From an uncultured Candidatus Binatia bacterium (GTDB taxonomy: Bacteria; Desulfobacterota; Binatia; UBA9968; JAJDTQ01), in NCBI GenBank assembly GCA_965242525.1, contig OZ251459.1, forward strand, positions 928,001 to 992,000: a DNA stretch of 64,000 nt, read 5' to 3'. Below are positions 10,486-34,159 of the stretch, one piece after another (position 1 is the stretch's first letter; the number at the start of each line of letters is the position of its first letter). A model generated the notes under the pieces. The model saw nothing but the letters and a program-made list of their open reading frames with translations, was not told where the DNA came from and did not search any database. The translations under genes were made by a program, and so were the position numbers.

Positions 10486-12561
10486 GTGGGCGTGTCGCAA
10501 ACGTCGGTCTTTTTCCGGTCCGGACGCTTCCCCCTGTTGTTGCTGCTGCTCGCGCTGTCCACGTTGTTCCTGTGCAACGTGGACAAGGGATACCTCTACC
10601 GTCCCGGCGTCCATGACTTCCACACCATAATGAATCTGGCGGTAGCCGAGAACCTGTCGCCCGACCACCATTTCCGGTTGTTCCGCTGGCTGCGCCCGGG
10701 ACCGGACGGCGCCCCTGCATACGAGATGTACAGCCGCTTTCCCGTGGGCGGTTACGCACTCATCAAGCTCGCCATCCTCCCCTTCGGAAACGACTTGTCC
10801 GCCAGGATACTGGCTGCCCGAATGCTCATGTTGCTCCTGTTCAGCGCCGCAGCAGTCCTGGCCTTCCACTCCCTCGTCCGCATCACCTCCCGGGGCTGGG
10901 TCGCCCTGGCCGCCACCCTCGCGGCGTTCTCCTCCTACTACATGCTGTTCCACGGCGACTCGGTTTCCGTGGAGGTCAGCGTGGACCTGTTCGCGGTCCT
11001 GCTGGCCTTCCACGGCATGGTGGTGTTCGTGCAGGAGGGACGGTTCCGGCAGTTGCTGGCCAAGACCTTGGTTGCGCTGCTGCTGGGATGGCACGTGTAC
11101 GCCTTCCTGCTGCCGTTCATCCTCCTGGGTCTGGGGAGCGAGGCAGTCCGTGCCTGGAAGGACGGGACCGCGTTGTGGCCTCGTGTGCGCTCGGTGGGGG
11201 CGGCGGTGCTGCGTAGCCGCTACACGGCCCTTGGCCTGGCCGCGCTGCTGTTCGGCTCGGCGGTCCTGGGCTTCAACTTCGCCAACGAGTACGCCGCGTT
11301 CGGGGGAGAAACCGCGGTGACCGAACTGCCGTCGTTCGAGTCCATGCTCAGGCGCACCGGACTGGGCCAGGACTCTGCCTCCGTCGGATGGTGGCTGCAC
11401 TTCCTGCGAGGGCAGTTCTATCCTGTCCGCGTGGCGTCGGTTCCCCTGGTGCTGGCCGACTGGGGCGCCGGTTTGCGGGGGTGGTTCCCCTCGGTTCCCT
11501 ATTCGGGGTCCGGCTTTTCGGGGCCGGAGTTGTCGCTTTACCTCCTGTTGTTGCTGCTGTCGGTGGCCGCAGCCGCGGTCGTGGTCCGGCTTGCGAGGCG
11601 GCTGTTGCCCCGGCGGCGCCGAATGCCGTTGGCCATCCTTGGCCTGTCGGGGTTCTTCTGGGCCCTGCCCATGCGCCATAACGTCGTATATTTCGGCCAC
11701 GACCACGAGGCGGTGTACTACGTGGGCGTGCCGCTGGTGTTGTACTCACTGCTCCTTTTGTACGTCCACAAGCGCTGGGGGCATGGTCCGGTGGTCGGCT
11801 TCGCAGTTGCGGCGCTGCTCGCCTTCGTGGTCTCCGCCTTCCAGGTGTACCAGCGCTGGATCCCTGACGCCCGGGCGGCGGAGGTCCAGCGCACCGCCAT
11901 GTCCGAACTCGGGGCCATCCGCGAAACCACCCGGGGAAAGGTGGTCCTGGTCCTCGAATCCGTCGAACCGGGATGGCTTACGCAGGTCTCACGGCTGCAC
12001 TACGCATGGAATTACTACCTCGCCGGAAGCATCCCGATATACGCTCGCGACGTGGAAGCGGGCGCCCGCGCCGCGGACTTCATCGTCACCCCTGACCGCG
12101 TGGAGAGCGGCGCCCTGCTCACCCCCGGGAACGAACGGGTGTTCCTGTATGGTCTCGCAGGTATCGACGATCTGGTGGAGTCGTACCGGGCCGCTTACCG
12201 GCAGGTGGTGTCCTCCGGAGACCCTGCTGCGCACTCGCACTTCGACGTCTATCTCGGTGACGGCGTGCTGACCTTCGTCAGGGGACCTTGCGTCGGGGAG
12301 GATGTGAGATACTGGATCTTCCTGAGGGCGGTCCCGGAAGACCTGAAGGACCTGCCCGGGTGGCGCCGCCTGCAAGCCGGCTCCGACCACCTCGCCTTCC
12401 ACTCCACCGCGTTGCCCATGCTGTTCGAGGAGAAGTGTATGGCTGTCCTTCCACTCCCCGATTACCCCGTCTCCCGCATCAGGGCGAGACAGAAGCTGCC
12501 CCCATCCCGTGACGGTTCCCATCGACAGGGCTGGAACGTGGAGATACCGGCGGGCGGGTAG
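10486..12561 (+). CDS. GT-C-like multi-TM membrane protein, array copy 1
   Basis: About 11 hydrophobic segments; YSRFP.GGY, AARMLML, LAAFSSYY, GD.V..E, HDHE..YY.GVP motifs; soluble C-terminal region with two Cys. Start uncertain (GTG 10486 or 10492; the frame is open from 10318). Confidence 0.7.
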   Translation: MGVSQTSVFFRSGRFPLLLLLLALSTLFLCNVDKGYLYRPGVHDFHTIMNLAVAENLSPDHHFRLFRWLRPGPDGAPAYEMYSRFPVGGYALIKLAILPFGNDLSARILAARMLMLLLFSAAAVLAFHSLVRITSRGWVALAATLAAFSSYYMLFHGDSVSVEVSVDLFAVLLAFHGMVVFVQEGRFRQLLAKTLVALLLGWHVYAFLLPFILLGLGSEAVRAWKDGTALWPRVRSVGAAVLRSRYTALGLAALLFGSAVLGFNFANEYAAFGGETAVTELPSFESMLRRTGLGQDSASVGWWLHFLRGQFYPVRVASVPLVLADWGAGLRGWFPSVPYSGSGFSGPELSLYLLLLLLSVAAAAVVVRLARRLLPRRRRMPLAILGLSGFFWALPMRHNVVYFGHDHEAVYYVGVPLVLYSLLLLYVHKRWGHGPVVGFAVAALLAFVVSAFQVYQRWIPDARAAEVQRTAMSELGAIRETTRGKVVLVLESVEPGWLTQVSRLHYAWNYYLAGSIPIYARDVEAGARAADFIVTPDRVESGALLTPGNERVFLYGLAGIDDLVESYRAAYRQVVSSGDPAAHSHFDVYLGDGVLTFVRGPCVGEDVRYWIFLRAVPEDLKDLPGWRRLQAGSDHLAFHSTALPMLFEEKCMAVLPLPDYPVSRIRARQKLPPSRDGSHRQGWNVEIPAGG

Positions 12562-12584
12562 TCCCTGCCGGCTAGAACCATCTC

Positions 12585-14747
12585 ATGGAGGGTACAGGAA
12601 AGTTATCCATGAAACGTCCATCTTCGAAAGGGGGAGACGGACCACCCGAGCACCCTTCCCGGAATTTCCGATCCGGACGCTTCCCCCTGTTGCTGCTGCT
12701 GCTCGCGCTGTCCACGTTGTTCCTGTGCAACCTGGACAAGGGATACTTGTACCGTCCCGGCGAGCATAACTTGAATACCGTAATCAACCTGACGATCGCC
12801 GAGAGCCTGTCGCCCGACCACCATTTCCGGTTGTTCCAGGGGTGGTACATGGAACCGGACGGCGCCCCCACGTACCATATGTACAGCCGCTTTCCCATGG
12901 GCGTATACGTACTCATCAAGCTCGCCATCCTCCCCTTCGGAAACGACCTGTCCGCCAAGATCCTGGCCGCCCGGATGCTCATGTTGCTCCTGTTCAGCGC
13001 CGCTGCGCTCCTGGCCTTCCACTCCCTCGCCCGCATCACTTCCCGGGGCTGGGTCGCCCTGGCCGCCACCCTCGCGGCGTTCTCCTCCTACTACATGCTG
13101 TTCTACGGCGACGCGGTTTACAACGAGGTCAGCGTGGACCTGTTCGCGGTCCTGCTGGCCTTCCACGGCATGGTGGTGTTCGTGCAGGAGGGACGGTTCC
13201 GGCAGTTGCTGGCCAAGACCTTGGTTGCGCTGCTGCTGGGGTGGCACGTGTACGCCTTCCTGCTGCCGTTCATCCTCCTGGGTCTGGGGAGCGAGGGGGT
13301 CCGTGCCTGGAAGGACGGAACTACGTTGTGGCCGCGTGTGCGTTCTGCCGGGGCAGCGGTGCTGCGCAGCCGCTATACGGCCCTTGGCCTGGCCGCGCTG
13401 CTGTTTGGCGCTGCGGTCCTGAGCTTCAACTTCGCCAACGAGTACACCGCGTTCGAGGGGCAGAAGCCAGTGACCGAACTGCCGTCGTTCCGGTCCATGC
13501 TCAGGCGCACCGGACTGGACCGGGACTCCGCCTCCGTCGGATGGTGGCTGCACTTCCTGCGAGGGCAGTTCTATCGTGTCCGCGTGGCCTCGGTTCCCCT
13601 GGCGTTGACCGACTGGGGCGCCGGTTTGCGGGGGCGGTTCCCCTCGGTTCCCTTTTCGGAGTCTGGCTTTTCGGGGCCGGAATTGTCGCTTTACCTCCTG
13701 TTGTTGCTGCTGGCGGTGGCCGCAGCCGCGGTCGTGGTCCGGCTTGCGGGGCCGCTGTTGGCCCGACGACACCACATGCTGTTGGCCGCCCTTGGCCTGT
13801 CGGGGTTCTTCTGGGCCCTGCCCATGCGTCATAACGTCGCGCCTCTCATCCACGACCACGAGGCGGTGTACTACGTGGGCGTGCCGCTGGTGTTGTACTC
13901 ACTGCTGCTGTTGTACGTCCACAAGCGCTGGGGGCATGGTCCGGTGGTCGGCTTCGCAGTTGCGGCGCTGCTCGCCTTCGTGGTCTCCGCCTTCCAGATG
14001 TACCAGCGATGGATACCTGACGCCCGGGCGGCGGAGATCCAGCGAACCGCCATGTCCGAACTCGGGGCCATCCGCGAAACCACCCGGGGGAAGGTGGTCC
14101 TGGTGATCGAGTCCGTCGAGCCGGGATGGTCCGCGCAGGTCACACGGCCGCGCCACGCATGGAGATACTACCTCGCCGGAAGCATCCTGATATACGCCCG
14201 CGACGTGGAGGCGGGCGCCCGCGCCGCGGACTTCATCGTTACCCGCGACCGGGTGGAGAGCGGCGCCCTGCTCACCCCCGGGAACGAACGGGTGTTCCTG
14301 TACGGTCCCGCAGGTATCGACGACCTGGTGGAGTCGTACCGGGCGGCTTACCGGCAGGTGGTGTCCTCCGGGGATCCTGCGGCGCGTTCCCACTTCGACG
14401 TCTATCTCGGCGACGAAGCGCTGACCTTCGTCAGGGAGCCTTGCGTCCGGGAGGATGTGAGATACGGGATGGTCATGAGCGCGGTTCCGGAAGACCTGAA
14501 GGACCTGCCCGGATGGCACCGCCTGCGATACGCCTCCGACCACCTCATCTTCAAGTCCACCGCGTTGCCCATGCTGTTCGATGGGAAGTGCATCGCCGTC
14601 CTTCCACTCCCCGATTACCCCGTCTCCCGCATCAGGGTAAAACAGGCGCTACACCGATCCCGTGACAGTTCCTATCGACGCGGCTGGAACGGCTGGAACG
14701 TGGAGATACGGGCGAGCCGGTGGCCGGGGCCATCCCATGGAGGGTAA
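12585..14747 (+). CDS. GT-C-like membrane protein, array copy 2
   Basis: Intact 720 aa paralog; alternative start 8 codons later (MKRPSS). Confidence 0.75.
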   Translation: MEGTGKLSMKRPSSKGGDGPPEHPSRNFRSGRFPLLLLLLALSTLFLCNLDKGYLYRPGEHNLNTVINLTIAESLSPDHHFRLFQGWYMEPDGAPTYHMYSRFPMGVYVLIKLAILPFGNDLSAKILAARMLMLLLFSAAALLAFHSLARITSRGWVALAATLAAFSSYYMLFYGDAVYNEVSVDLFAVLLAFHGMVVFVQEGRFRQLLAKTLVALLLGWHVYAFLLPFILLGLGSEGVRAWKDGTTLWPRVRSAGAAVLRSRYTALGLAALLFGAAVLSFNFANEYTAFEGQKPVTELPSFRSMLRRTGLDRDSASVGWWLHFLRGQFYRVRVASVPLALTDWGAGLRGRFPSVPFSESGFSGPELSLYLLLLLLAVAAAAVVVRLAGPLLARRHHMLLAALGLSGFFWALPMRHNVAPLIHDHEAVYYVGVPLVLYSLLLLYVHKRWGHGPVVGFAVAALLAFVVSAFQMYQRWIPDARAAEIQRTAMSELGAIRETTRGKVVLVIESVEPGWSAQVTRPRHAWRYYLAGSILIYARDVEAGARAADFIVTRDRVESGALLTPGNERVFLYGPAGIDDLVESYRAAYRQVVSSGDPAARSHFDVYLGDEALTFVREPCVREDVRYGMVMSAVPEDLKDLPGWHRLRYASDHLIFKSTALPMLFDGKCIAVLPLPDYPVSRIRVKQALHRSRDSSYRRGWNGWNVEIRASRWPGPSHGG

Positions 14748-16890
14748 AGGAAAGCTGTCCATGAAACGTCCATCCTCGAAAGGGGAGGACGGACCACCCG
14801 TGTACCCCTCCCGGAATCTCCGGTCCGGACGCTTCCCCCTGCTGTTGCTGCTGCTTGCGCTGTCCACGTTGTTCCTGTGCAACGTGGACAAGGGATACCT
14901 CTACCGTCCCAACCTCCATGACTTCAACACCATAAGGAACCTGGCGATGGCCGAGAACCTGTCGCCAGACCACCATTTCCGGTTGTTTCTCCAGCGGTTC
15001 ACGAGACCGGGCGGCGCCCCCACATACGAGATGTACAGCCGCTTTCCCGTGGGCGGATACGCACTCATCAAGCTCGCCATCCTCCCCTTCGGAAACGACC
15101 TGTCCGCCAGGATCCTCGCCGCCCGAATGCTCATGTTGCTGTTGTTCAGCGCCGCTGCGCTCCTGGCCTTCCACTCCCTCGTCCGCATCACCTCCCGGGG
15201 CTGGGTCGCCCTGGCCGCCACCCTTGCGGCGTTCTCCTCCTACTACATGCTGTTCTACGGCGACGTGGTTTCCGTGGAGGGCAGCGTGGACCTGTTCGCG
15301 GTCCTGCTGGCCTTCCACGGCATGGTGGTGTTCGTGCAGGAGGGACGGTTCCGGCAGTTGCTGGCCAGGACCTTCGTTGCGCTGCTGCTGGGATGGCACG
15401 TGTACGCCTTCCTGCTGCCGTTCCTCCTCCTGGGCCTGGGGAGCGAGGCAGTCCGGGCGTGGAAGGACGGAACCGCGGCGTGGTCCCGTGTGCGCTTCAC
15501 CGGGGCGGCGGTGCTGCGCAGCCGCTACACGGCCCTTGGCTTGGCCGCACTGCTGTTCGGCGCTGCGGTCCTGGGCTTCAACTTCGCCAACGAGTACACC
15601 GCGTTCGAGGGGCAGAAGCCGGTGACCGAACTGCCGTTGTTCGACTCCATCCTCATGCACACCGGACTGGACCGGGACTCCGTCTCCGCCGGATGGTGGC
15701 TGCAGTTCCTGCGAAAGCAGTTCTCTCGTGTCCGCATGGCGTCGGTTCCCCTGGTGCTGGCCGACTGGGGCGCCGGTTTGCGGGGATGGTTCCCCTCGGT
15801 TCCCTATTCGGGGTCCGGGTTTTCGGGGCCGGAGTTGTCGCTTTACCTCCTGTTGTTGCTGCTGGCGGTGGCCGCAGCCGCGGTGGTGGTCCGGCTTGCG
15901 AGGCGGTTGTTGCCCCGACGGCGCCAAATGCCGTTGGCCGTCCTTGGCCTGTCAGGGTTCTTCTGGGCCCTGCCCATGCGCCATACCGTCGTACACCTAT
16001 CCCACGACCATGAGGCGGTGTACTACGTGGGTGTTCCGCTGGTGTTGTACTCACTGCTCCTGTTGTACGTCCACAAGCGCTGGGGGCATGGTCCGGTGGT
16101 CGGCTTCGCAGTTGCGGCGCTGCTCGCCTTCGTGGTCTCCGCCTTCCAGATGTACCAGCGATGGATCCCTGACGCCCGGGTGGCCGAGGTCCAGCGCACC
16201 GTCATGTCCGAACTCGGGGCCATCCGCGAAACCACCCGGGGGAAGGTGGTCCTGGTCCTCGATTCCGTCGAGCCGGGATGGCTCACGCAGGTCAGACCGC
16301 CGCCCGCATGGAATTACTACTTCGCGGGAAGCATCCTGACATACGCCCGCGACGTGGAAGCGGGCGCCCGCGCCGCGGACTTCATCGTCACCCCTGACCG
16401 GGTGGAGAGCGGCGCCCTGCTCACCCCCGGGAACGAATGGATGTTCCTGTATGGTCCCGCAAGTATCGACGACTTGGTGGAGTCGTACCGGGCCGTTTAC
16501 CGGCGGGTGGTGTCCTCCGGGGACCCTGTGGCGCGCTCCCACTTCGACGTCTATCTCGGTGACGACGCGCTGACCTTCGTCAGGGAGCCTTGCGTCCGGG
16601 AGGATGTGAACCGCGGGGTCACCCTGAGGGTGGTCCCGGAAGACCTGAAGGACATGCCCATATGGCGCCGCCTGCTGCAATACATCTCCGACCACGTCGT
16701 CTTCCAGTCCACCCAGTTGCCCATGCTGTTCGAGGAGAAGTGTATCGCTGTGTTTCTATTCCCCGATTTCCCCGTCTCCCGCATCATGGCGATACAGAAT
16801 CCGCGCCTATCCCGTGACAGTTCGCATCGACACGGCTGGAAAGTAGAGATACCGGCGAGCCGGTGGCCGGAGCCATCCCATGGGGGGTAA
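14737..16890 (+). CDS. GT-C-like membrane protein, array copy 3
   Basis: Intact paralog; MEGKGK start at 14737 overlaps copy 2 by 11 nt. Confidence 0.75.
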   Translation: MEGKGKLSMKRPSSKGEDGPPVYPSRNLRSGRFPLLLLLLALSTLFLCNVDKGYLYRPNLHDFNTIRNLAMAENLSPDHHFRLFLQRFTRPGGAPTYEMYSRFPVGGYALIKLAILPFGNDLSARILAARMLMLLLFSAAALLAFHSLVRITSRGWVALAATLAAFSSYYMLFYGDVVSVEGSVDLFAVLLAFHGMVVFVQEGRFRQLLARTFVALLLGWHVYAFLLPFLLLGLGSEAVRAWKDGTAAWSRVRFTGAAVLRSRYTALGLAALLFGAAVLGFNFANEYTAFEGQKPVTELPLFDSILMHTGLDRDSVSAGWWLQFLRKQFSRVRMASVPLVLADWGAGLRGWFPSVPYSGSGFSGPELSLYLLLLLLAVAAAAVVVRLARRLLPRRRQMPLAVLGLSGFFWALPMRHTVVHLSHDHEAVYYVGVPLVLYSLLLLYVHKRWGHGPVVGFAVAALLAFVVSAFQMYQRWIPDARVAEVQRTVMSELGAIRETTRGKVVLVLDSVEPGWLTQVRPPPAWNYYFAGSILTYARDVEAGARAADFIVTPDRVESGALLTPGNEWMFLYGPASIDDLVESYRAVYRRVVSSGDPVARSHFDVYLGDDALTFVREPCVREDVNRGVTLRVVPEDLKDMPIWRRLLQYISDHVVFQSTQLPMLFEEKCIAVFLFPDFPVSRIMAIQNPRLSRDSSHRHGWKVEIPASRWPEPSHGG

Positions 16891-19039
16891 AGGAGAGAAG
16901 CTGTCCGTGAAACGTCCATCTTCGAAAGGGGGAGACCGACCACCCGAGTACCCCTCCCGGAATTTCCGCTCCGGACGCTTCCCCCTGCTGTTGCTGCTGC
17001 TCGCGCTGTCCACGTTGTTCCTGTGCAACGTGGACAAGGGATACCTCTACCGTCGCGGCTTCCATGACTTCAACACCCTGATGAACTTGGCGATGGCCGA
17101 GAACCTGTCGGCCGACCACAATTTCCGGTTGTTCCGCTGGCTGCGCCCGGGACCGGACGGCGTCCCCACATACGAGATGTACAGCCGCTTTCCCGTGGGC
17201 GGATACGCACTCATCAAGCTCGCCATCCTCCCCTTCGGAAACGACCTGTCCGCCAGGATCCTCGCCGCCCGAATGCTCATGTTGCTGTTGTTCAGCGCCG
17301 CTGCGCTCCTGGCCTTCCACTCCCTCGCCCGCATCACCTCCCGCCACTGGGTCGCGCTGGCCGCCACCCTCATGGCGTTCTCCTCCTACTACATGCTGTT
17401 CCACGGCGACGCGGTTTGCGTGGAGTACAGTGTGGACCTGTTCGCGGTCCTGCTGGCCTTCCACGGCATGGTGGTGTTCGTGCAGGAGGGACGGTTCCGG
17501 CAGTTGCTGGCCAAGACCTTGGTTGCGCTGCTGCTGGGATGGCACGTGTACGCCTTCCTGCTGCCGTTCATCCTCCTGGGTCTGGGGAGCGAGGCAGTCC
17601 GTGCCTGGAAGGACGGAACCGCGGTGTGGCTGCGCTCCACCGGGGCGGCGGTGCTGCGCAGCCGCTACACGGCCCTTGGCTTGGCCGCGCTGCTGTTCGG
17701 CGCGACCGTCCTGGGCTTCAACTTCGCCAACGAGTACACCGCGTTCGAGGGACAGAAGCCGGTGACCGAACTGCCGTTGTTCGACTCCATCCTCAGGCGC
17801 ACCGGACTGAACCGGGACTCCGCCTCCACCGGATGGTGGCTGCACTTCCTGCGAGGACAGTTCACTCGTGTCCGCGTGGCGTCGGTTCCCCTGGCGCTGA
17901 CACACTGGGGCGCCGGTTTGCGGGGGTGGTTCCCCTCGGTTCCCCTTTCGGGGTCCGGCCTTTCGGGGCCGGAGTTGTCGCTTTACCTCCTGTCGTTGCT
18001 GCTGGCGGTGGCCGCAGCCGCGGTCGTGGTCCGGCTTGCGAGGCGGTTGTTACCCCGACGGCGCCGAATGCCGTTCGCCGTCCTTGGCCTGTCGGGGTTT
18101 TTCTGGGCCCTGCCCATGCGCCATAACGTCGTAGACCTCGGCCACGACCATGAGGCCCTGTACTACGTGGGCGTCCCGCTGGTGTTGTACTCACTGCTGC
18201 TGCTGTACGTCCACCAGCGCTGGGGGCAGGCTCCGGTGGTCGGCCTCGCAGTTGCGGCGCTGCTCGCCTTCGTGGTCTCTGCCTTCCAGATGTACCAACG
18301 CTGGATCCCTGACGCCCGGGCGGCGGAGGTCCAGCGCACCGCCATGTCCGAACTCGGGGCCATCCGCGAAACCACCCGGGGAAAGGTGGTCCTGGTCCTC
18401 GATTCCGTCGAGCCGGGATGGCTCACGCAGGTCACGCGGCCGCGCCACGCATGGAGTTACTACCTCGCTGGAAGCATCCCGATATATCCCCGCGACGTGG
18501 AAGCGGGCGCCCGCGCCGCGGACTTCATCGTCACCCCTGACCGTGTGGAGAGCGGCGCCCTGCTCACCCCCGGGAACGAACGGGTGTTCCTGTATGGTCC
18601 CGCAGGTATCGACGACCTGGTGGAGTCGTACCGGGCCGCTTACCGGCAGGTGGTGTCCTCCGGGGACCCTGTGGCGCGCTCCCACTTCGACGTCTATCTC
18701 GGTGACGAAGCGCTGACCTTCGTCAGGGAGCCTTGCGTCCGGGAGGATGTGAGAAACGAGATCCTCTTGAGGGCGGTCCCGGAAGACCTGAAAGACCTGC
18801 CCGGATGGCGCCGCCTGCAATTCGGCTCCGACCACCTCGTCTTCGAATCCATCAGGTTTCCCAAGCTGTTCGAGGAGAAGTGCATGGCTGTCCTTCCACT
18901 CCCCGATTACCCCGTCTCCCGCATCAGGGCGGCACAGAAGCGACACCCATCCCGCATCGAGGTGGGACAGGCGCTACACCGGTCCCGTGACAAGTTATAT
19001 CGACAGGGCTGGAACGTGGAGATACCGGCGGGCGGGTAG
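16880..19039 (+). CDS. GT-C-like membrane protein, array copy 4
   Basis: Intact 719 aa paralog. Confidence 0.75.
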   Translation: MGGKGEKLSVKRPSSKGGDRPPEYPSRNFRSGRFPLLLLLLALSTLFLCNVDKGYLYRRGFHDFNTLMNLAMAENLSADHNFRLFRWLRPGPDGVPTYEMYSRFPVGGYALIKLAILPFGNDLSARILAARMLMLLLFSAAALLAFHSLARITSRHWVALAATLMAFSSYYMLFHGDAVCVEYSVDLFAVLLAFHGMVVFVQEGRFRQLLAKTLVALLLGWHVYAFLLPFILLGLGSEAVRAWKDGTAVWLRSTGAAVLRSRYTALGLAALLFGATVLGFNFANEYTAFEGQKPVTELPLFDSILRRTGLNRDSASTGWWLHFLRGQFTRVRVASVPLALTHWGAGLRGWFPSVPLSGSGLSGPELSLYLLSLLLAVAAAAVVVRLARRLLPRRRRMPFAVLGLSGFFWALPMRHNVVDLGHDHEALYYVGVPLVLYSLLLLYVHQRWGQAPVVGLAVAALLAFVVSAFQMYQRWIPDARAAEVQRTAMSELGAIRETTRGKVVLVLDSVEPGWLTQVTRPRHAWSYYLAGSIPIYPRDVEAGARAADFIVTPDRVESGALLTPGNERVFLYGPAGIDDLVESYRAAYRQVVSSGDPVARSHFDVYLGDEALTFVREPCVREDVRNEILLRAVPEDLKDLPGWRRLQFGSDHLVFESIRFPKLFEEKCMAVLPLPDYPVSRIRAAQKRHPSRIEVGQALHRSRDKLYRQGWNVEIPAGG

Positions 19040-19062
19040 TCCCTGCCGGCCGGGGCCATCCC

Positions 19063-21219: not shown

Positions 21220-21242
21220 TCCCTGCCGGCCGGGGCCATCCC

Positions 21243-25533: not shown

Positions 25534-25556
25534 TCCCCGCCGGCCAGAGCCATCCC

Positions 25557-27668: not shown

Positions 27669-27691
27669 TCCCTGCCGGCCGGGGCCATCCC

Positions 27692-29824
27692 ATGGAGGGT
27701 AAAGGAGAGAATCTGTCCATGAAACGTCCATCCTCGAAAGGTGGAGACGGACCACCCGTGTACCCATCCGGGAATTTCCGGTCCGGACGCTTCCCCCTGT
27801 TGTTGCTGCTGCTCGCGCTGTCCACGTTGTTCCTGTGCAACGTGGACAAGGGATACCTCTACCGTCCCGGCCTGCATAACTGGAGTACCATAAAGAACTT
27901 GGCGCTGGCCGAGAACCTGTCGCCCGACCACCATTTCCGGTTGTTCCTCCAGCGGACCACGGGGCCGGACGGCGCCCCTGCATACGAGATGTACAGCCGC
28001 TTTCCCATGGGCGTATATGCACTCATCAAGCTCGCCATCCTTCCTTTCGGAAACGACCTCTCCGCCAGGATACTCTCTGCCCGAATGCTCATGTTGCTCC
28101 TGTTCAGCGGTGCTGCGCTCCTGGCCTTCCACTCCCTCGTCCGCATCACTTCCCGGGGCTGGGTCGCCCTGGCCGCCACCCTCATGGCGTTCTCCTCCTA
28201 CTACATGCTGCTCTACGGCGACGCGGTTTCCGTGGAGGTCAGCGTGGATCTGTTCGCGGTCCTGCTGGCCTTCCACGGCATGGTGGTGTTCGTGCAGGAG
28301 GGACGGTTCCGGCAGTTGCTGGCCAAGACCTTGGTTGCGCTGCTGCTGGGATGGCACGTGTACGCCTTCCTGTCGCCGTTCATCCTCCTGGGCCTGGGGA
28401 GCGAGGCAGTCCGTGCCTGGAAGGACGGGACCGCGCTGTGGCCTCGTGTGCGCTCGGTGGGGGTGGCGGTGCTGCGCAGCCGCTACACGGCCCTTGGCCT
28501 GGCTGCGCTGCTGTTCGGCGCGGCGGTCCTGGGCTTCAACTTCGCCAACGAGTACGCCGCGTTCGGAGGCGAGACCGCGGTGACCGAACTGCCGTCGTTC
28601 CAGTCCATGCTCAGGCGCACCGGACTGGACCGGGACTCCGCCTCCGCCGGATGGTGGATGGGTTTCCTGCGAGGGCAGTTCTATCGTGTCCGCATGGCGT
28701 CGGTTCCCCTGGCGCTGGCCGACTGGGGCGCCGGTTTGCGGGGGTGGTTCCCCTCGGTTCCCTATTCGGGGTCCGGCTTGTCGGGGCCGGAGTTGTCGCT
28801 TTACTTCCTGTTGTTGCTGGCGGCGGTGGCCGCAGCCGCGGTCGTGGTCCGGCTTGCGAGGCGGCTGTTGCCCCGGAGTCGCCGCATGCCGTTCGCCGCC
28901 CTTGGCCTGTCAGGTTTCTTCTGGGCCCTGCTCATGCGCAATAACGTCGTACACTTTAGCCACGACCATGAAGCGGTGTACTACGTGGGGGTCCCGCTGG
29001 TGTTGTACTCACTGCTCCTGCTGTACGTCCACCAGCGCTGGGGGCATCGTCCGGTGGTGGGGCTCGCATTTGCGGCGCTGCTCGCCTTCGTGGTCTCCGC
29101 CTTCCAGATGTACCAACGCTGGGTCCCTGACGCCCGGGCGGCCGAGGTCCAGCGAACCGCCATGGCAGAAATCGGGGCCATTCGCGAAACCACCCGGGGA
29201 AAGGTGATCCTGGTCATCGAGTCCGTCGAGCCGGGACGGTCCGCACAGGTCACGCAGCCGCGCCACGCATGGAATTACTACCTCGCCGGAAGCATCCTGA
29301 CATACTCCCGCGACGTGGAATCGGGCGCCCGCGCCGCGGACTTCATCGTCACCCGCGACCGGGTGGAGAGCGGCGCCCTGCTCACCCCGGGGAACGAACG
29401 GGTGTTCCTGTATGGTCCCGCAGGTATCGACGACCTGGTGGAGTCGTACCGAGCAGCTTACCGGCAGGCGGCGTCCTCCGGGGCCCCTGCGGCGCGTTCC
29501 CACTTCGACGTCTATCTCGGCGACGACGCGCTGACCTTCGTCAGGGAGCCCTGCATCCGGGAGGACGTGAGAAACGAGATCTTCCTGATGGCGGTTCCGG
29601 AAGACCTGAATGACCTGCCCGGATGGCGCCGCCTGCGATACGGCTCCGACCACCTCGTCTTCCATTCCACCAAGGCGCCCATGCTGTTCGATGAGAAGTG
29701 TATCGCTGTCCTTCCACTCCCCGACTACCCCGTCTCCCGCATCAGGGTGAGACAGAAGCGAGGCCCATCCCGTGACAGTTCGCATCGACACGGCTGGAAG
29801 GTAGAGATACCGGCGAGCCGGTAG
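27692..29824 (+). CDS. GT-C-like membrane protein, array copy 9
   Basis: Intact 710 aa paralog. Confidence 0.75.
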   Translation: MEGKGENLSMKRPSSKGGDGPPVYPSGNFRSGRFPLLLLLLALSTLFLCNVDKGYLYRPGLHNWSTIKNLALAENLSPDHHFRLFLQRTTGPDGAPAYEMYSRFPMGVYALIKLAILPFGNDLSARILSARMLMLLLFSGAALLAFHSLVRITSRGWVALAATLMAFSSYYMLLYGDAVSVEVSVDLFAVLLAFHGMVVFVQEGRFRQLLAKTLVALLLGWHVYAFLSPFILLGLGSEAVRAWKDGTALWPRVRSVGVAVLRSRYTALGLAALLFGAAVLGFNFANEYAAFGGETAVTELPSFQSMLRRTGLDRDSASAGWWMGFLRGQFYRVRMASVPLALADWGAGLRGWFPSVPYSGSGLSGPELSLYFLLLLAAVAAAAVVVRLARRLLPRSRRMPFAALGLSGFFWALLMRNNVVHFSHDHEAVYYVGVPLVLYSLLLLYVHQRWGHRPVVGLAFAALLAFVVSAFQMYQRWVPDARAAEVQRTAMAEIGAIRETTRGKVILVIESVEPGRSAQVTQPRHAWNYYLAGSILTYSRDVESGARAADFIVTRDRVESGALLTPGNERVFLYGPAGIDDLVESYRAAYRQAASSGAPAARSHFDVYLGDDALTFVREPCIREDVRNEIFLMAVPEDLNDLPGWRRLRYGSDHLVFHSTKAPMLFDEKCIAVLPLPDYPVSRIRVRQKRGPSRDSSHRHGWKVEIPASR

Positions 29825-29847
29825 TCCTTGTCGGCCAGGGCCGTCCC

Positions 29848-32004
29848 ATGCAGGGTGAAGGAGGGAAGCTGTCCATGGAATATCAATCTTCGAAAGGGGA
29901 AGACGACCACCCGTGCACCCCCTCCTCGCGGAATTTCCGGTCCGGACGCTTCCCCCTGCTGTTGCTGCTGCTCGCGCTGTCCACGTTGTTCCTGTGCAAC
30001 GTGGACAAGGGATACCTCTACCGTCCCAACCTCCATGACTTCAACACCATAATGAATCTGGCGGCAGCCGAGAACCTGTCACCCGACCACAATTTCCGGT
30101 TGTTCGTCCCGCAAATCATGGAACCGGGCGGCGCCCACGCATATATGTACAGCCGCTTTCCCGTGGGTGGATACGTATTCATCAAGCTCGCCATCCTCCC
30201 CTTCGGAAACGACTTGTCCGCCAGTATCCTCGCGGCCCGAATGCTCATGTTGCTCCTGTTCAGCGGTGCTGCGCTCCTGGCCTTCCACTCCCTCGCCCGC
30301 ATCACTTCCCGGGGCTGGGTCGCCCTGGCCGCCACCCTCGCGGCGTTCTCCTCCTACTACATGCTGTTCCACGGCGACTCGGTCTCCGTGGAGGTCAGCG
30401 TGGACCTGTTCGCGGTCCTGCTGGCCTTCCACGGCATGGTGGTGTTCGTGCAGGAGGGACGGTTCCGGCAGTTGCTGGTCAAGACCTTGGTTGCGCTGCT
30501 GCTGGGGTGGCACGTGTACGCCTTCCTGTCGCCGTTCATCCTCCTGGGCCTGGGGAGCGAGGCAGTCCGTGCCTGGAAGGACGGGACCGCGCTGTGGCCT
30601 CGTGTGCGCTCGGTGGGGGCGGCGGTGCTGCGCAGCCGCTACACGGCCCTTGGCCTGGCTGCGCTGCTGTTCGGCGCGACGGTCCTGGGCTTCAACTTCG
30701 CCAACGAGTACGCCGCGTTCGGAGGCGAGACCGCGGTGACCGAACTGCCGTCGTTCCAGTCCATGCTCAGGCGCACCGGACTGGACCGGGACTCCGCCTC
30801 CGCCGGATGGTGGATGGGTTTCCTGCGAGGGCAGTTCTATCGTGTCCGCATGGCGTCGGTTCCCCTGGCGTTGACCGACTGGGGCGCCGGTTTGCGGGGG
30901 TGGTTCCCCTCGGTTCCCTATTCGGGGTCCGGCCTTTCGGGGCCGGAGTTGTCGCTTTACCTCCTGTTGTTGCTGCTGGCGGTGGCCGCAGCCGCGGTCG
31001 TGGTCCGGCTTGCGAGGCGGCTGTTGCCCCGGCGGCGTCGAATGCCGTTGGCCGTCCTTGGCCTGTCGGGGTTCTTCTGGGCCCTGCCCATGCGCCATAA
31101 CGTTGCGGACTTCGCCCACGACCATGAGGCGGTGTACTACGTGGGCGTGCCGCTGGTGTTGTACTCACTGCTCCTGTTGTACGTCCACAAGCGCTGGGGG
31201 CATGGTCCGGTGGTCGGCTTCGCAGTTGCGGCGCTGCTCGCCTTCGTGGTCTCCGCCTTCCAGATGTACCAACGCTGGATACCTGACGCCCGGGCGGCGG
31301 AGGTCCAGCGCACCGCCATGGCCGAACTCGGGGCCATCCGCGAAACCACCCGGGGAAAGGTGGTCCTGATCCTCAAGGCCGTCGAGCCGGGATGGCTCAT
31401 GCAGGTCTCACAGCCGCGCCACGAATGGAATTACTACTTCGCCGGAAGCATCCTGACATACGCCCGCGACGTGGAAGCGGGCGCCCGGGCCGCGGACTTC
31501 ATCGTCACCCGCGACCGTGTGGAGAGCGGCGCCCTGCTCACCCCCGGGAACGAACGGGTGTTCCTGTACGGTTCCGCAGGTATCGGCGACCTGGTGGAGT
31601 CGTACCGGGCCGCTTACCGGCAGGTGGTGTCCTCCGGGGCCCCTGTGGCGCGCTCCCACTTCGACGTCTATCTCGGCGACGAAGCGCTGACCTTCGTCAG
31701 GGAGCCTTGCGTCGGGGAGGATGTGAGATACTGGATCGTCATGAGCGCGGTCCCGGAAGACCTGAAGGACCTGCCCGGATGGCTCCGCCTGCGATACCAC
31801 CCCGGCCACCCCATCTTGAAGTCCGGCACGTTTCCCATACTGTTCGAGGAGAAGTGCATCGCTGTCCTTCCGCTCCCCGATTACCCCGTTTCCCGCATCA
31901 AGGTGAGACAGTCGCTACGCCGGTCCCGTGATAGCTCCCATCCACACGGCTGGAAGGTAGAGATACCGGCGAGCCGGTGGCCGGTGCCATCCCATGGAGG
32001 GTAA
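29848..32004 (+). CDS. GT-C-like membrane protein, array copy 10
   Basis: Intact 718 aa paralog. Confidence 0.75.
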   Translation: MQGEGGKLSMEYQSSKGEDDHPCTPSSRNFRSGRFPLLLLLLALSTLFLCNVDKGYLYRPNLHDFNTIMNLAAAENLSPDHNFRLFVPQIMEPGGAHAYMYSRFPVGGYVFIKLAILPFGNDLSASILAARMLMLLLFSGAALLAFHSLARITSRGWVALAATLAAFSSYYMLFHGDSVSVEVSVDLFAVLLAFHGMVVFVQEGRFRQLLVKTLVALLLGWHVYAFLSPFILLGLGSEAVRAWKDGTALWPRVRSVGAAVLRSRYTALGLAALLFGATVLGFNFANEYAAFGGETAVTELPSFQSMLRRTGLDRDSASAGWWMGFLRGQFYRVRMASVPLALTDWGAGLRGWFPSVPYSGSGLSGPELSLYLLLLLLAVAAAAVVVRLARRLLPRRRRMPLAVLGLSGFFWALPMRHNVADFAHDHEAVYYVGVPLVLYSLLLLYVHKRWGHGPVVGFAVAALLAFVVSAFQMYQRWIPDARAAEVQRTAMAELGAIRETTRGKVVLILKAVEPGWLMQVSQPRHEWNYYFAGSILTYARDVEAGARAADFIVTRDRVESGALLTPGNERVFLYGSAGIGDLVESYRAAYRQVVSSGAPVARSHFDVYLGDEALTFVREPCVGEDVRYWIVMSAVPEDLKDLPGWLRLRYHPGHPILKSGTFPILFEEKCIAVLPLPDYPVSRIKVRQSLRRSRDSSHPHGWKVEIPASRWPVPSHGG

Positions 32005-34159
32005 AGGAGAGAAGCTGTCCATGAAACGTCCATCTTCGAAAGGGGAAGACGGACCACCCGTGTACCCCTCCCGGAATTTCCGGTCCGGACGCCTCCCCTT
32101 GTTGTTGCTGCTGCTCGCGCTGTCCACGTTGTTCCTGTGCAACCTGGACAAGGGATACCTCTACCGTCCCGGCTTCCATGACTTCAACACCATGAAGATC
32201 CTGACGCTGGCCGAGAACCTGTCGCCCGACCACAATTTCCGGTTGCTCCAGGGGTGGTACATGGAACCGGACGGCGCCCCCACGTACCATATGTACAGCC
32301 GCTTTCCCGTGGGCGGATTCGCACTCATCAAGCTCGCCATCCTCCCCTTCGGAAACGACCTGTCCGCCAAGATCCTGGCCGCCCGAATGCTCATGTTGCT
32401 CCTGTTCAGCGCCGCAGCGGTCCTGGCCTTCCACTCCCTCGTCCGCATCACCTCCCGGGGCTGGGTCGCCCTGGCCGCCACCCTTGCGGCGTTCTCCTCC
32501 TACTACATGCTGTTCTATGGCGACGCGGTTTACAACGAGGTCAGCGTGGACCTGTTCGCGGTCCTGCTGGCCTTCCACGGCATGGTGGTGTTCGTGCAGG
32601 AGGGACGGTTCCGGCAGTTGCTGGCCAAGACCTTGGTTGCGCTGCTGCTGGGGTGGCACGTGTACGCCTTCCTGTCGCCGTTCATCCTCCTGGGCCTGGG
32701 GAGCGAGGCAGTCCGGGCGTGGAAGGAAGGAACCGCGGTGTGGCCGCGTGTGCGCTTCACCGGGGCGGCGGTGCTGCGCAGCCGCTACATGGCCCTTGGC
32801 TTGGCCGCGCTGCTGTTCGGCGCTGCGGTCCTGGGCTTCAACTTCGCCAACGAGTACGCCGCGTTCGGAGGCGAGACCGCGGTGACCGAACTGCCGTTGT
32901 TCCGGTCCATCCTCAGGCGCACCGGACTGGACCAGGACTCCGCCTCCGTCGGATGGTGGATGGGTTTCCTGCGAGGGCAGTTCTATCGTGTCCGCATGGC
33001 GTCGGTTCCCCTGGCGCTGACCGACTGGAGCGTCGGTTTGCGTGGGTGGTTCCCCTCGGTTCCCTATTCGGGGTCCGGCCTTTCGGGGCCGGAGTTGTCG
33101 CTTTACCTCCTGTTGTTGCTGCTGGCGGTGGCCGCCTCTGCGGTCGTGGTCCGGCTTGCGAGGCGGCTGTTGCCCCGGCGGCGCCAAATGCCGTTGGCCG
33201 TCCTTGGCCTGTCAGGGTTCTTCTGGGCCCTGCCCATGCGCCATAACGTCGCACCCCTCGCCCACGACCAAGAGGCAGTGTACTACGTGGGGGTCCCGCT
33301 GGTGTTGTACTCACTGCTCCTGCTGTACATCCACAAGCGCTGGGGGCATGGTCCGGTGGTCGGTCTCGCAGTTGCGGCGCTGCTCGCCTTCGTGGTCTCC
33401 GCGTTCCAGATGTACCAGCGGTGGATCCCTGACGCCCGGGCGGCGGAGATCCAGCGGACCGCCATGTCCGAACTCGGGGCCATCCGCGAAACCACCCGGG
33501 GAAAGGTGGTCCTGGTCCTCGAATCCGTCGAGCCGGGATGGCCCGCGCAGGTCACACAGCCGCGCCACGCATGGAGTTACTACCTCGCCGGAAGCATCCT
33601 GATATACTCCCGCGACGTGGAGGCGGGTGCCCGCGCCGCGGATTTCATCGTCACTCGCGACCGGGTGGAGAGCGGCGCCCTGCTCACCCCCGGGAACGAA
33701 CGGATGTTCCTGTATGGTCCCGCAGGTATCGACGACTTGGTGGAGTCGTACCGGGCGGCTTACCGGCAGGTGGTGTCCTCCGGGGCCCCAGCGGCGCGTT
33801 CCCACTTCGACGTCTATCTCGGCGACGAAGCGCTGACCTTCGTCAGGGAGCCTTGCGTCCGGAGGGATGTAAGACGCGAGATCCGCCTGAGGGCGGTTCC
33901 GGAAGACCTGAAGGACCTGCCCGGATGGCTCCGCATGCGATACGGCTCCGACCACATCCTCTTCGACTCCACCGCGTTGCCCATGCTGTTCGAGGAGAAG
34001 TGTATGGCTGTCCTTCCACTCCCCGATTACGCCGTATCCCGCATCAGGGTGAGACAGGCGCTACACCCATCCCGCATCAAGGTGGGACATGCGCTACACC
34101 CATCCCGTGACAAGTTGTATCGATATGGCTGGAAAGCGGAGGTACCGGCGAACCGGTAA
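31994..34159 (+). CDS. GT-C-like membrane protein, array copy 11
   Basis: Intact 721 aa paralog. Confidence 0.75.
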   Translation: MEGKGEKLSMKRPSSKGEDGPPVYPSRNFRSGRLPLLLLLLALSTLFLCNLDKGYLYRPGFHDFNTMKILTLAENLSPDHNFRLLQGWYMEPDGAPTYHMYSRFPVGGFALIKLAILPFGNDLSAKILAARMLMLLLFSAAAVLAFHSLVRITSRGWVALAATLAAFSSYYMLFYGDAVYNEVSVDLFAVLLAFHGMVVFVQEGRFRQLLAKTLVALLLGWHVYAFLSPFILLGLGSEAVRAWKEGTAVWPRVRFTGAAVLRSRYMALGLAALLFGAAVLGFNFANEYAAFGGETAVTELPLFRSILRRTGLDQDSASVGWWMGFLRGQFYRVRMASVPLALTDWSVGLRGWFPSVPYSGSGLSGPELSLYLLLLLLAVAASAVVVRLARRLLPRRRQMPLAVLGLSGFFWALPMRHNVAPLAHDQEAVYYVGVPLVLYSLLLLYIHKRWGHGPVVGLAVAALLAFVVSAFQMYQRWIPDARAAEIQRTAMSELGAIRETTRGKVVLVLESVEPGWPAQVTQPRHAWSYYLAGSILIYSRDVEAGARAADFIVTRDRVESGALLTPGNERMFLYGPAGIDDLVESYRAAYRQVVSSGAPAARSHFDVYLGDEALTFVREPCVRRDVRREIRLRAVPEDLKDLPGWLRMRYGSDHILFDSTALPMLFEEKCMAVLPLPDYAVSRIRVRQALHPSRIKVGHALHPSRDKLYRYGWKAEVPANR

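Follow-up and report, generated by a model that had tools for sequence, protein, structure and literature searches.

The locus lies in a 64,000-nt stretch of DNA from an uncultured Candidatus Binatia bacterium (contig OZ251459.1, positions 928,001 to 992,000), which we refer to as the window. Positions 10318–34159 of the window are occupied by 11 intact tandem paralogues, all on the + strand, with ORFs of 703–747 amino acids and frames that stay open in every copy across 23.8 kb. The repeat unit is 2.16 kb, at ~90% identity. The first copy, c1 (10318..12561), is a 747-aa ORF, of which ~65 N-terminal residues are unique to it; the repeat proper runs from near 10513 (FRSGRFPLL). Copy c2 (12585..14747; 720 aa), whose start is placed 8 codons downstream, at MKRPSS, by gene callers, supplied both the residue numbering and the sequence of the AlphaFold model. 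It is followed by c3 (14737..16890), overlapping c2 by 11 nt (ATGGAGGGTAA), c4 (16880..19039; 11-nt overlap with c3), c5 (19063..21219; 23-nt spacer from c4), c6 (21243..23393), c7 (23383..25533; with a 21-nt tandem duplication at 23557–23598, within the variable segment V1), c8 (25557..27668), c9 (27692..29824), c10 (29848..32004) and the final copy, c11 (31994..34159). The junctions are a 23-nt spacer in six of ten cases and an 11-nt overlap in four, and every copy has its own start codon, with a Shine-Dalgarno-like GGAGG 5′ of the second ATG or GTG. This tightly packed row is probably a co-transcribed operon. Directly upstream is a CDP-alcohol phosphatidyltransferase gene (9733..10299, + strand). 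The same gene is kept in the sister species G036, where it adjoins an unrelated gene, so that it delimits the insertion site on the left.

Copy number and order come from one long-contig assembly. A repeat of this length and identity in a metagenome-derived genome could arise if strain variants were mis-assembled or if polishing mixed the copies of a shorter repeat, and three single-contig joints in other runs that skip one or two units, as well as an unusual loss of linkage between variable sites within about 30 nt, would fit such an artefact. However, short contigs (140–300 nt) from four runs of three studies, one of which runs may be the source sample, covered 29–30 of the 30 bins of the array, mostly at ≥99% identity. 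The pieces matching at ≥99% numbered 565/705, 441/688, 222/272 and 94/131 per run, and some crossed gene junctions with 0 differences. As all 11 frames are also open and the same family forms several small tandem arrays in G036, we consider an artefact very unlikely.

Glycosyltransferases of the GT-C class sit in the inner membrane and draw on a sugar linked to polyprenyl phosphate at its periplasmic side. The original prediction had guessed this class from the sequence, and the fold supports the guess well. The model of c2 (pLDDT 86.5, pTM 0.89) clearly has a GT-C fold: the best 44 Foldseek matches in the PDB were all GT-C enzymes, and the matches listed by VIA-align (50 entries) all belonged to the GT-C superfamily, including three entries of PIG-U, a GPI transamidase subunit. 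The best structural match was ArnT (GT83; lipid A aminoarabinose transferase; PDB 5ezm/5f15), with a Z of 21.8, an rmsd of 5.0 and 429 aligned residues for 5f15. At the sequence level, no Pfam or NCBIfam model reached its threshold for the array proteins, and a Pfam scan of three copies found 0 families even at E values as high as 1. Against PMT_2 (PF13231), the highest-scoring paralogue of the genome reached 22.7 bits, below the cut-off of 26.1. The sole Pfam signal in the family was a sub-threshold PMT match (PF02366; 16–21 bits, cut-off 22.7) in four of 16 distant homologues. The nearest Atlas cluster is named RgtA/B/C/D-like, with the ArnT family also among the neighbour names. We conclude that, as modelled, the array proteins form an unnamed, divergent ArnT/PMT-like GT-C family, presumably of active enzymes.

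Like ArnT, the array proteins combine an N-in polytopic core with a periplasmic domain behind it. They differ from it in having 11 rather than 13 predicted TM helices, a 15-residue β-hairpin insertion in the first loop and a different C-terminal domain that ends in an Ig-like sandwich, and also in having no PMT_2 match at threshold. In the ArnT family, loop 1 closes with a Y-F-E-K-P type motif, and an Asp in loop 2 pairs with a Lys in loop 3. The YSRFP motif, D176 and W220/H221 of the array stand at a constant +18 offset from ArnT P86 and from D158 and K203 as numbered in the ArnT paper (PMC7801869); an hhalign profile comparison with E. coli ArnT fell short of significance (E 0.18). The ArnT paper also describes an extended first periplasmic loop that carries juxtamembrane helices and has a Y-x-x-x-P motif ahead of the following helix, an Asp in periplasmic loop 2 and a TM5/TM6 pair that reads as one long helix; candidate counterparts of these, judged by spacing, occur in the array. 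From the predicted helices, the charges and these three ArnT landmarks, the best-fitting topology is N-in, 11 TM and C-out. This is also the GT-C_A architecture of PMT and TMTC proteins (GT39/GT105; fold Z 18–19), from which the array differs in lacking MIR and TPR domains and in having a single Asp, not DE or DD, as the loop-1 acid. The conserved R130, early in TM2, may be the counterpart of the Arg with which this acid is paired in PMT (PMC7801869).

Under this topology, the first periplasmic loop, EL1 (12756..12860 in c2, + strand, as for all segments below), holds V1 and V2. V1 (residues 58–70) is the start of a juxtamembrane helix around the conserved H61 and begins 7 residues past D51; V2 (residues 84–92) is a β-hairpin. 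V3 (residues 174–181; 13104..13127) surrounds D176 and would belong to periplasmic loop EL2 if the topology is ArnT-like, and to the cytoplasm under the alternative. V4 (residues 417–421; 13833..13847) is in the periplasmic loop EL5, directly before H423-D-H-E426. The periplasmic C-terminal domain (residues 476–720; 14010..14744) carries V5, V6 and V7. Its final ~120 residues form an Ig/FN3-like β-sandwich with a conserved Cys pair (C620, C669).

GT-C enzymes typically have an acidic residue early in the first extracytoplasmic loop, which acts as catalytic base or metal ligand (ArnT D55, PMT D77). In the array, D51, four residues past TM1, is the candidate. It is present in all 11 copies, as are the Y-x-R-F-P motif, R130, D176, R204, Q207, K211/R, W220, E286 and H423, but it is an Asp in just 69% of 49 distant homologues. 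In the latter set, Y100, R102 and P104 of YSRFP are conserved at ≥96%, D176 at 92%, H423 at 88%, H61 at 83% and E426 at 76%. The Ig/FN3-like module also occurs on two proteins of this genome that pass the PMT_2 threshold. One kind of GT2 gene makes lipid-linked sugar donors. Of the 17 dispersed full-length copies, one is followed directly by a gene of this kind (Glycos_transf_2, 340 aa); none was found within the window.

The proteins might instead keep the GT-C fold for another purpose, as lipid-carrier-binding scaffolds or receptors whose variable periplasmic surface binds partner proteins. The imperfect conservation of D51, an H61 in loop 1 where ArnT has Asp/Glu (PMC7801869), the non-catalytic PIG-U among the fold matches and the missing donor-synthesis gene would all suit this reading. 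It is nevertheless very unlikely, given the polar residues kept in all copies, the C-terminal module shared with proteins above the PMT_2 threshold and the GT2 gene adjoining one paralogue.

Next, we compared the copies with each other. Pairwise nucleotide identity is 88–93%, while amino-acid identity is only 82–88%. All the strings that the original prediction had quoted for V1–V7 were recovered in the alignment, and the TM stretch that it had described as nearly invariant even at synonymous sites (SVDLFAVLLAFHGMVVFVQEGRFRQLL) falls in the region of lowest synonymous diversity. This homogenised core (residues 183–236, TM4–TM6; 13131..13292) has a piS of 0.040, compared with a median of 0.118 in windows of equal size (rank 6 of 644; reached by 0 of 5000 random codon sets), and carries the family-conserved H194, R204, Q207, K211 and W220. 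Per-site entropy over the aligned copies showed that variation is clustered more strongly than expected by chance: the index of dispersion is 1.42, while 2000 shuffles gave a mean of 0.60 and a maximum of 1.01, and 0 of them reached the observed value.

It is not, however, confined to seven segments. V1–V7 make up 128 of 683 columns (19%) and account for 48% of the entropy (107.7 of 225.4 bits), and amino acids vary in 271 of 698 gap-free columns, 87 of them with at least three residues. Further variable patches are the N-terminal tail (residues 2–32, mean entropy 0.63) and residues 244–256, 296–350 and 389–400. Residues 296–350 (13470..13634) belong to EL4, a long periplasmic loop, and form its variable part, which was missing from the first list; the other three patches are predicted to be cytoplasmic, yet vary. 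The claim that all variation faces outward thus applies to V1, V2 and V4–V7 under the predicted topology, and to V3 only if the topology is ArnT-like. Proximity to catalytic residues is true of V1, V3 and V4 in so far as they flank H61, D176 and H423/E426, whose catalytic role is putative. Variability per position in the array correlates modestly with that in the family (Spearman 0.34, n = 632).

The copies are fine-grained mosaics produced by pervasive gene conversion, a process behind the framework/variable pattern that had been missed before. In the four-gamete test, 55% of informative site pairs failed, the failure rate climbing from 0.285 at 1–10 nt to a plateau of 0.55 beyond about 30 nt. 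At least 104 recombination events are required (Rm), and 0 of 2000 permutations matched the PHI-like statistic. There are 41 pairwise identical tracts of at least 100 nt, the longest of which, at 377 nt, is common to c8 and c10. Another assembly contains a twelfth protein of the array type, for which 635 of 657 residues are also present in the array's pool of variants. Fine mosaicism and long identical tracts indicate that gene conversion keeps recombining a restricted set of loop variants over a homogenised core.

A conserved framework alternating with variable patches also resembles targeted hypermutation by a diversity-generating retroelement, or antigenic variation in which one expressed gene is fed from silent donor cassettes. 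The former is contradicted by the mutation spectrum, which has no adenine bias (A, at 14% of bases, is the starting base in 135 of 746 changes), and by the lack of a reverse transcriptase domain among the 37 neighbouring ORFs scanned. Systems of the pilE/pilS or vlsE type use truncated, promoterless donors; all 11 copies here are full-length with their own starts and GGAGG, so none looks like a silent cassette. We regard either mechanism as exceedingly improbable.

The family turns over rapidly between species. There are about 28 full-length members in this genome and 40 in G036, with unequal copy numbers at syntenic loci, and at the site syntenic to the array G036 has an unrelated gene and no array. 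The best cross-species amino-acid identities are 66–79%, with no pair above 80%, whereas the flanks are 92–97% identical at the nucleotide level.

We then examined the selection pattern. Whole-gene piN/piS is 0.65, with an overall piS of 0.125. By compartment, the ratio is 0.28 in the TM helices (CI 0.19–0.41), 0.90 in the periplasmic parts (0.74–1.12) and 0.59 in the cytoplasmic parts (0.44–0.81; N-terminal tail 0.76), and JC correction leaves the picture the same (TM 0.30, periplasmic loops 0.89, C-domain 0.82). Flanking genes compared with G036 give an omega of 0.06–0.28. The contrast between framework and variable parts therefore stands. Elevated dN/dS in the named windows was only partly borne out: V1–V7 pooled give 1.37 (CI 1.04–1.87), but these segments had been chosen for their amino-acid variability, no compartment defined beforehand is significantly above 1, and V4 has a ratio of 0.54 (piS 0.45, piN 0.245). 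The excess of piS in V4 points to old variants. Synonymous diversity is also raised in V2 (0.23), and in some windows piN far exceeds piS (0.206 vs 0.016, and 0.131 vs 0.016 in EL4, alignment columns 346–360, about residues 300–314 of c2).

These ratios could also reflect relaxed constraint after amplification, where the copies are redundant, only the frame and the membrane core are selected, and the loops and C-domain drift near-neutrally, the drift being spread by conversion with no new specificities. The periplasmic interval includes 1, the cytoplasmic tails vary as well, and copies are gained and lost fast. Moreover, family-wide omega between species is about 0.5, and in four cross-species pairs the TM helices (0.40–0.66) do not differ from the loops (0.36–0.67), so the family as a whole may simply be weakly constrained. 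However, neutral drift of a folded 245-residue domain should bring stops and frameshifts. The at least 656 mutation events in residues 33–720 would be expected to yield 17.9 stops if unselected (14 in all periplasmic parts, ~8.3 in the C-domain), and 0 were observed (P about 1e-8). In addition, 30 of the 38 family-conserved positions (majority residue ≥85%) are invariant in the array, the raised piS of V2 and V4 looks like old variants shielded from homogenisation rather than fresh drift, and several windows have piN far over piS. We hold relaxed constraint to be possible but rather doubtful. Diversifying selection on the substrate-side loops is the best reading, suggested though short of formal proof, and its target would be either acceptor or donor specificity.

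It is thus fairly likely that the array consists of eleven functional GT-C paralogues, locally amplified and shuffled by gene conversion, in which loop change has been tolerated, or favoured by some presumed selective agent. Local tandem amplification at a species-variable site would have created the array, and very frequent short-tract conversion with unequal exchange would keep the membrane core near-identical, most strongly in TM4–TM6, while dealing the copies new combinations from a restricted set of loop alternatives. Selection would purge truncations and retain every family-conserved polar residue, and would tolerate or favour amino-acid change in EL1, EL2, EL4, EL5 and the C-terminal β-sandwich.

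RgtA/B/C/D of Rhizobium and EmbC/A/B of mycobacteria are sets of GT-C paralogues, some of them arranged in tandem, whose members glycosylate different positions of a single envelope glycoconjugate. The array resembles these sets in being paralogous GT-C proteins, with an RgtA/B/C/D-like nearest cluster and Emb proteins among the fold matches. However, those sets have three or four long-diverged members with fixed roles, and ArnT is a single copy within the arn operon, whereas here 11 copies at ~90% nucleotide identity exchange segments. Plant NLR clusters (such as RPP8), MHC and Neisseria opa/pilS are multigene families shuffled by gene conversion. By analogy, the array appears to work like these but belongs to none of them: it shares their tandem paralogues, mosaic exchange, homogenised framework, variable and seemingly ligand-facing patches, amino-acid divergence above nucleotide divergence and rapid birth and death, but its products are inner-membrane proteins with the variable parts toward the periplasm, not exposed receptors or antigens, and every copy is complete.

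In solved GT-C enzymes, the substrate cavities are formed by the corresponding loops and C-terminal parts, and acceptor (or donor) preference would therefore be expected to differ somewhat from copy to copy. The set of copies would decorate an envelope glycoconjugate in many ways, and the loop diversity among them may let the bacterium vary its surface sugars.

The array consists of eleven ORFs of 703–747 aa each (copies c1 to c11), arranged head to tail on the forward strand at 10318–34159. At six of the ten junctions a spacer of 23 nt follows the TAG stop; at the remaining four the frame extends by eight residues and shares 11 nt with the start of the following gene (ATGGAGGGTAA). In these four gene ends (14720–14747, 16863–16890, 23366–23393 and 31977–32004, forward strand) TGG replaces the usual TAG, the added residues are WPxPSHGG and a TAA overlaps the next start, which amounts to a recurrent stop/sense polymorphism in the repeat. 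GGAGG is found within the first codons of the array genes, and gene callers place the start at the second Met (712 versus 720 aa for c2). The leader of c1 is unique, and the repeat proper begins near 10513. Promoter and terminator scans, which are uninformative for this organism, gave no sigma-70-like site against an expectation of 1.8, and terminator-like sites were no more frequent than by chance. The copies are 88.3–92.9% identical pairwise at the nucleotide level versus 82.3–88.3% at the amino acid level, which signals an excess of replacement changes. Elsewhere in the window, genes for a Bpu10I-type endonuclease and a DNA methylase (43896–46171, reverse strand; G+C 0.597 versus about 0.67) look like an inserted restriction-modification island.

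With the E cut-off relaxed to 1, three array copies still matched no Pfam family. NCBIfam gave nothing meaningful for the array copies, the sole row being SLATT at E 0.32. A word-indexed search returned 1192 homologous proteins, and an exhaustive search returned 1520 cluster representatives (50% identity) at E up to 0.001, with 440 of them at E up to 1e-30; none of the five clusters that we looked up carried a name. An AlphaFold model of c2, made with a 60-sequence alignment as input, had a pLDDT of 86.5 and a pTM of 0.89. Its best 44 Foldseek matches in the PDB were all GT-C proteins (STT3/AglB/PglB, ArnT, ALG, DPY19, Emb/Aft and PMT), and VIA-align placed it on ArnT (5f15) with Z 21.8 and an rmsd of 5.0 over 429 residues, all 50 listed entries being GT-C. 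Links at the sequence level were weak: sub-threshold PMT matches in 4 of 16 distant homologues, 22.7 bits to PMT_2 for one paralogue, and protein-atlas neighbours named RgtA/B/C/D-like or ArnT family. On these fold matches and weak links we assigned the family to the GT-C fold; it would be a divergent ArnT/PMT-like branch and belongs to no curated family. An hhalign comparison of the family profile with E. coli ArnT gave E 0.18 in local mode and served as a lead only. A profile search of the PDB matched only TM helices of an RND efflux transporter, with profile positions 197–282 (approximately c2 residues 200–290) on 6vej_A (468–553; E 1.6e-6); we took this match as membrane-helix composition. 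The literature searched, supplementary files aside, held nothing on this family or on comparable GT-C arrays.

The C-terminal 245 residues of c2, modelled separately, had a pLDDT of 86.0. Of these, the final ∼120 make up a generic Ig/FN3-like sandwich, for which the best VIA-align Z, 7.2, does not rise above the noise range given for that tool; with the C-terminal domain, Foldseek gave no match at E 0.001 or better, the WzmWzt rows having probabilities of 0.2–0.6. This module, with its conserved Cys pair (c2 residues 595–716, window 14367–14732), also ends two PMT_2-passing proteins of the array-bearing genome, G000 (G000:C1:1171762–1174140 and 3995675–3998128; hhalign probability 99.7%), which share nothing else with the family. 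Elsewhere in the class the module, sometimes doubled, is carried by proteins without the N-terminal family domain. The ∼120-residue beta-sandwich with its Cys pair is a mobile module. Another domain arrangement was observed in P0225, a distant homologue of 1099 aa, where a sub-threshold GT87 match (22.4 bits, residues 91–325) lies ahead of the family domain (414–1072); two GT-C enzymes may have been fused in this protein.

The original prediction had placed seven hypervariable segments (V1–V7) on the outer side of an N-in, 11-TM protein, near putative catalytic residues. For the comparison with ArnT we took P86 to be the landmark corresponding to the YSRFP motif of c2 (residues 100–104). YSRFP, D176 and W220/H221 of c2 then lie at a constant offset of +18 from ArnT P86, D158 and K203. 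Loop 1 of ArnT holds Asp/Glu, D158 is in loop 2 right before TM4 with K203 of loop 3 as its partner, the acceptor site is formed by loops 1, 2 and 4 and the donor site by loops 1 and 4 (PMC7801869). TM5 and TM6 of ArnT are described as mis-annotated as a single long helix (PMC7801869), and in c2 the 40-residue helix 205–244 is interrupted at G219–W220. If instead all predicted helices were transmembrane and 205–244 a single one of them, V3 and D176 would be cytoplasmic; this arrangement is less likely, as it fits the positive-inside rule more poorly and disregards the ArnT precedent. Predicted helices, hydrophobicity, charges, conservation in 49 distant homologues and the ArnT landmarks (PMC7801869) are best fitted by an N-in, 11-TM, C-out topology. 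In this N-in, C-out topology the predicted periplasmic loops are EL1 (c2 residues 48–121, carrying V1 and V2), EL2 (175–181, V3), EL4 (290–363) and EL5 (412–422, V4), followed by a periplasmic C-domain (476–720, V5–V7). V1 flanks H61 (conserved in 83% of the 49 distant homologues), V3 flanks D176 (92%), and V4 precedes H423 (88%) and E426 (76%).

Every string quoted in the prediction is present in our alignment, which has 698 gap-free codon columns: 300 invariant, 127 with synonymous changes only and 271 variable in amino acid, 87 of the latter having three or more residues and 33 four or more. The variable columns are clustered: their dispersion index was 1.42, whereas 2000 shuffles averaged 0.60 and never went above 1.01. 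The claim that variation is confined to about seven segments holds as far as clustering is concerned, but "confined to" is too strong, since V1–V7 make up 19% of the columns and hold only 48% of the entropy. Further variable patches lie in the long loop (residues 296–350), the N-terminal tail and residues 389–400 and 244–256. The transmembrane stretch SVDLF...RQLL is indeed quiet even synonymously: piS over residues 183–236 was 0.040 versus a median of 0.118, rank 6 among 644 windows of equal size and reached by none of 5000 random codon sets. In V1 of c7, we also observed an in-frame 21-nt tandem duplication (window 23557–23598; NLTDFDT then NLHDFNT, 4 nt differences), so slippage or duplication also supplies length variation to this loop.

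Next, we compared replacement and silent diversity among the eleven copies, for which piN/piS was 0.65 over the whole gene. With compartments set by structure and not by variability, piN/piS was 0.28 (CI 0.19–0.41) in the TM helices, 0.90 (0.74–1.12) in the periplasmic parts and 0.59 (0.44–0.81) in the cytoplasmic parts; Jukes–Cantor-corrected pairwise means agreed (TM 0.30, periplasmic loops 0.89, C-domain 0.82, cytoplasmic 0.42). Two windows had piN far over piS (0.206 versus 0.016 and 0.131 versus 0.016). For eight flanking genes compared with the sister-species genome, G036, omega was 0.06–0.28 at dS 0.11–0.19; a ninth row, EamA (omega 6.3), was left out because its coordinates were out of frame. 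There is no sign of decay in the copies: residues 33–720 require a minimum of 656 mutation events and 2.7% of random mutations make a stop, so that about 18 stops were expected (14 in the periplasmic parts alone) and none was seen (P about 1e-8). Among the family-conserved positions, 30 of 38 are invariant across the array. Purifying selection thus acts on the reading frame, the core and the conserved polar residues, and in the substrate-side parts replacement changes build up as fast as silent ones, locally much faster.

At the sequence level, this pattern fits a mix of constraint and diversifying selection. The proposal that diversifying selection shapes the variable segments gains from the pooled V1–V7 ratio of 1.37 (1.04–1.87; 0.44 elsewhere), a value inflated by the choice of segments; against it stand V4 alone (0.54, with a very high piS of 0.45) and the periplasmic interval, which spans 1. 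Moreover, in four cross-species pairs (G000 versus G036) omega was 0.45–0.59 overall and the TM/loop contrast was absent, which weakens the notion of special loops family-wide. The observation behind the original prediction is confirmed in part; the interpretation given to it has partial support and is here extended.

The copies are mosaics of one another. The nearest neighbour of each copy switches between successive 150-nt windows, and 41 pairwise tracts of at least 100 nt are identical, the longest (377 nt) being shared by c8 and c10, a pair with 91.5% identity over the full length. With 211 biallelic informative sites, the four-gamete test fails for 55% of all pairs, rising from 0.285 at 1–10 nt to 0.49 at 11–30 nt and flat about 0.55 farther apart; the Hudson–Kaplan lower bound is 104 recombination events, and a PHI-like statistic was exceeded in 0 of 2000 permutations (windows of 5 and 10 sites). 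P0010, a twelfth array-type protein, which comes from another assembly and is 82% identical to c2, matches some array copy at the same position for 635 of 657 residues, and in its V segments array variants are combined anew, together with a few novel residues. From the mosaic tracts, the four-gamete failures and the recombinations in P0010, we concluded that the framework/variable look arises from concerted evolution, in which conversion keeps the core uniform and deals out loop variants afresh from a limited pool. V2 and V4 retain older, deeper variants, as piS is raised there too. A diversity-generating retroelement was ruled out, since the substitution spectrum has no adenine bias.

The turnover extends to the whole family. 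G000 (4.23 Mb) carries, besides the eleven array copies, 17 dispersed full-length members at 68–77% amino acid identity and one frameshifted copy; family copies number 28–40 per 4-Mb genome, and the array copies form one clade in the family tree. Relatives were found in MAGs titled Candidatus Binatia and in one Latescibacterota MAG at 42% identity. The distribution is patchy: within the genus 3 of 28 genomes had any match (G036 has 40 full-length copies, and another matches in the C-terminal module only), and of 151 genomes sampled from the class 11 matched with E no higher than 1e-20, some seven of them to the full-length protein or its N-terminal (transmembrane) part. Between G000 and G036 the best cross-pair amino acid identity was 66–79%, with none above 80% and three reciprocal best hits, whereas the DNA flanking family loci is 92–97% identical. 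Low cross-species identity and differing copy numbers at syntenic loci (1 versus 3, 1 versus 2 and 1 versus 0) indicate that the family evolves by rapid birth and death, and its turnover outpaces its neighbour genes. The array site is bordered by a CDP-alcohol phosphatidyltransferase gene on one side and the downstream genes on the other; the position syntenic to the 24-kb array holds, within 3.6 kb of G036, an unrelated HsdS/DUF559 gene whose 685-aa product joins a type I restriction specificity domain (Methylase_S) to DUF559 (L031:2455–4512, reverse strand), and the site is thus a variable island in both species. Mean dS inside the array (0.136) is about equal to the species divergence of the flanks.

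Copy number and order come from one long-contig assembly. We compared the array with contigs, mostly of 140–300 nt, from four public runs of three studies, and one of the four runs may be the source sample; some runs containing array sequence are labelled sponge metagenome, and none of those listed is an RNA run. The contigs cover all 30 bins of 12585–32004 (29 of 30 in one run), the pieces at 99% identity or more number 565 of 705, 441 of 688, 222 of 272 and 94 of 131 in the four runs, and those across gene junctions include pieces with zero differences. Three single-contig joints omit 2138, 2165 and 4348 nt. In run X5, one contig runs leftward from about residue 28 of c9 (window 27775) into the unique leader of c1, and in that population the first array gene may be c9-like, or the array may be shorter. 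As the sides of these joints are only 29–41 nt, they hint weakly at best that copy number or order varies.

The neighbours of the 17 dispersed full-length copies, for which 101 adjoining ORFs were scanned, are mixed. A 340-aa GT2 gene lies immediately downstream of one copy, GT2 being the classic partner that produces a lipid-linked sugar; others include a GT4 gene, polysaccharide deacetylases, sulfotransferases, a Kdo transferase, LptF/G and YhdP, and these show that the envelope is diderm and has LPS. Members of a second expanded family, of ∼415-aa GDSL-like proteins with a weak GDSL/SGNH lipase signature, lie beside GT-C members at three loci of G000: 38613–39866 of the window (forward strand), L021:815–4646 and L016:13911–15155. 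The window's GDSL-like gene matches the DNA of ∼20 places in G036 at 74–79%, and at least eight such copies are in tandem at G036:C1:1219983–1231108. Just 3′ of this gene (window 39876–39926) is a ∼50-nt element with ∼25 copies scattered across G036 at 88–94% identity, perhaps a repeat of the REP-like or terminator type.

GT-C enzymes make or alter LPS, cell-wall glycans and glycoproteins, and a bacterium typically has a handful of them in fixed roles. The array enzymes most likely take a sugar from a polyprenyl-phosphate carrier and attach it, in the periplasm, to an envelope glycoconjugate, the copies differing in acceptor or donor preference. As the variable parts face a diderm periplasm, they would be invisible directly to outside agents, and any diversifying selection would act via the products; the selective agent may plausibly be a phage or host that recognises surface glycans. 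A bolder possibility, which we hold only tentatively and consider less likely than not, is that the array serves as a permanent library of glycosyltransferase specificities that reshuffles itself, driven by such recognition of surface sugars. Conversion among the probably co-transcribed paralogues would then re-deal the substrate-binding loops and the swappable C-terminal beta-sandwich, and strains would carry differing sets of periplasmic enzymes and hence differing, heterogeneous envelope glycan coats.

We conclude that the array family is a new, unnamed GT-C branch in an unusual evolutionary regime. With 1520 clusters and no Pfam model, this unannotated family merits a database model, and an 11-gene mosaic array at one locus bears on both GT-C specificity and the diversification of bacterial envelope glycans. 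If the loops set substrate choice, the eleven near-isogenic enzymes would be a natural set for mapping GT-C acceptor specificity, and recombination among enzyme genes would be a new route to envelope-glycan diversity, in contrast to the known routes, in which whole glycan loci are swapped or phase variation operates.
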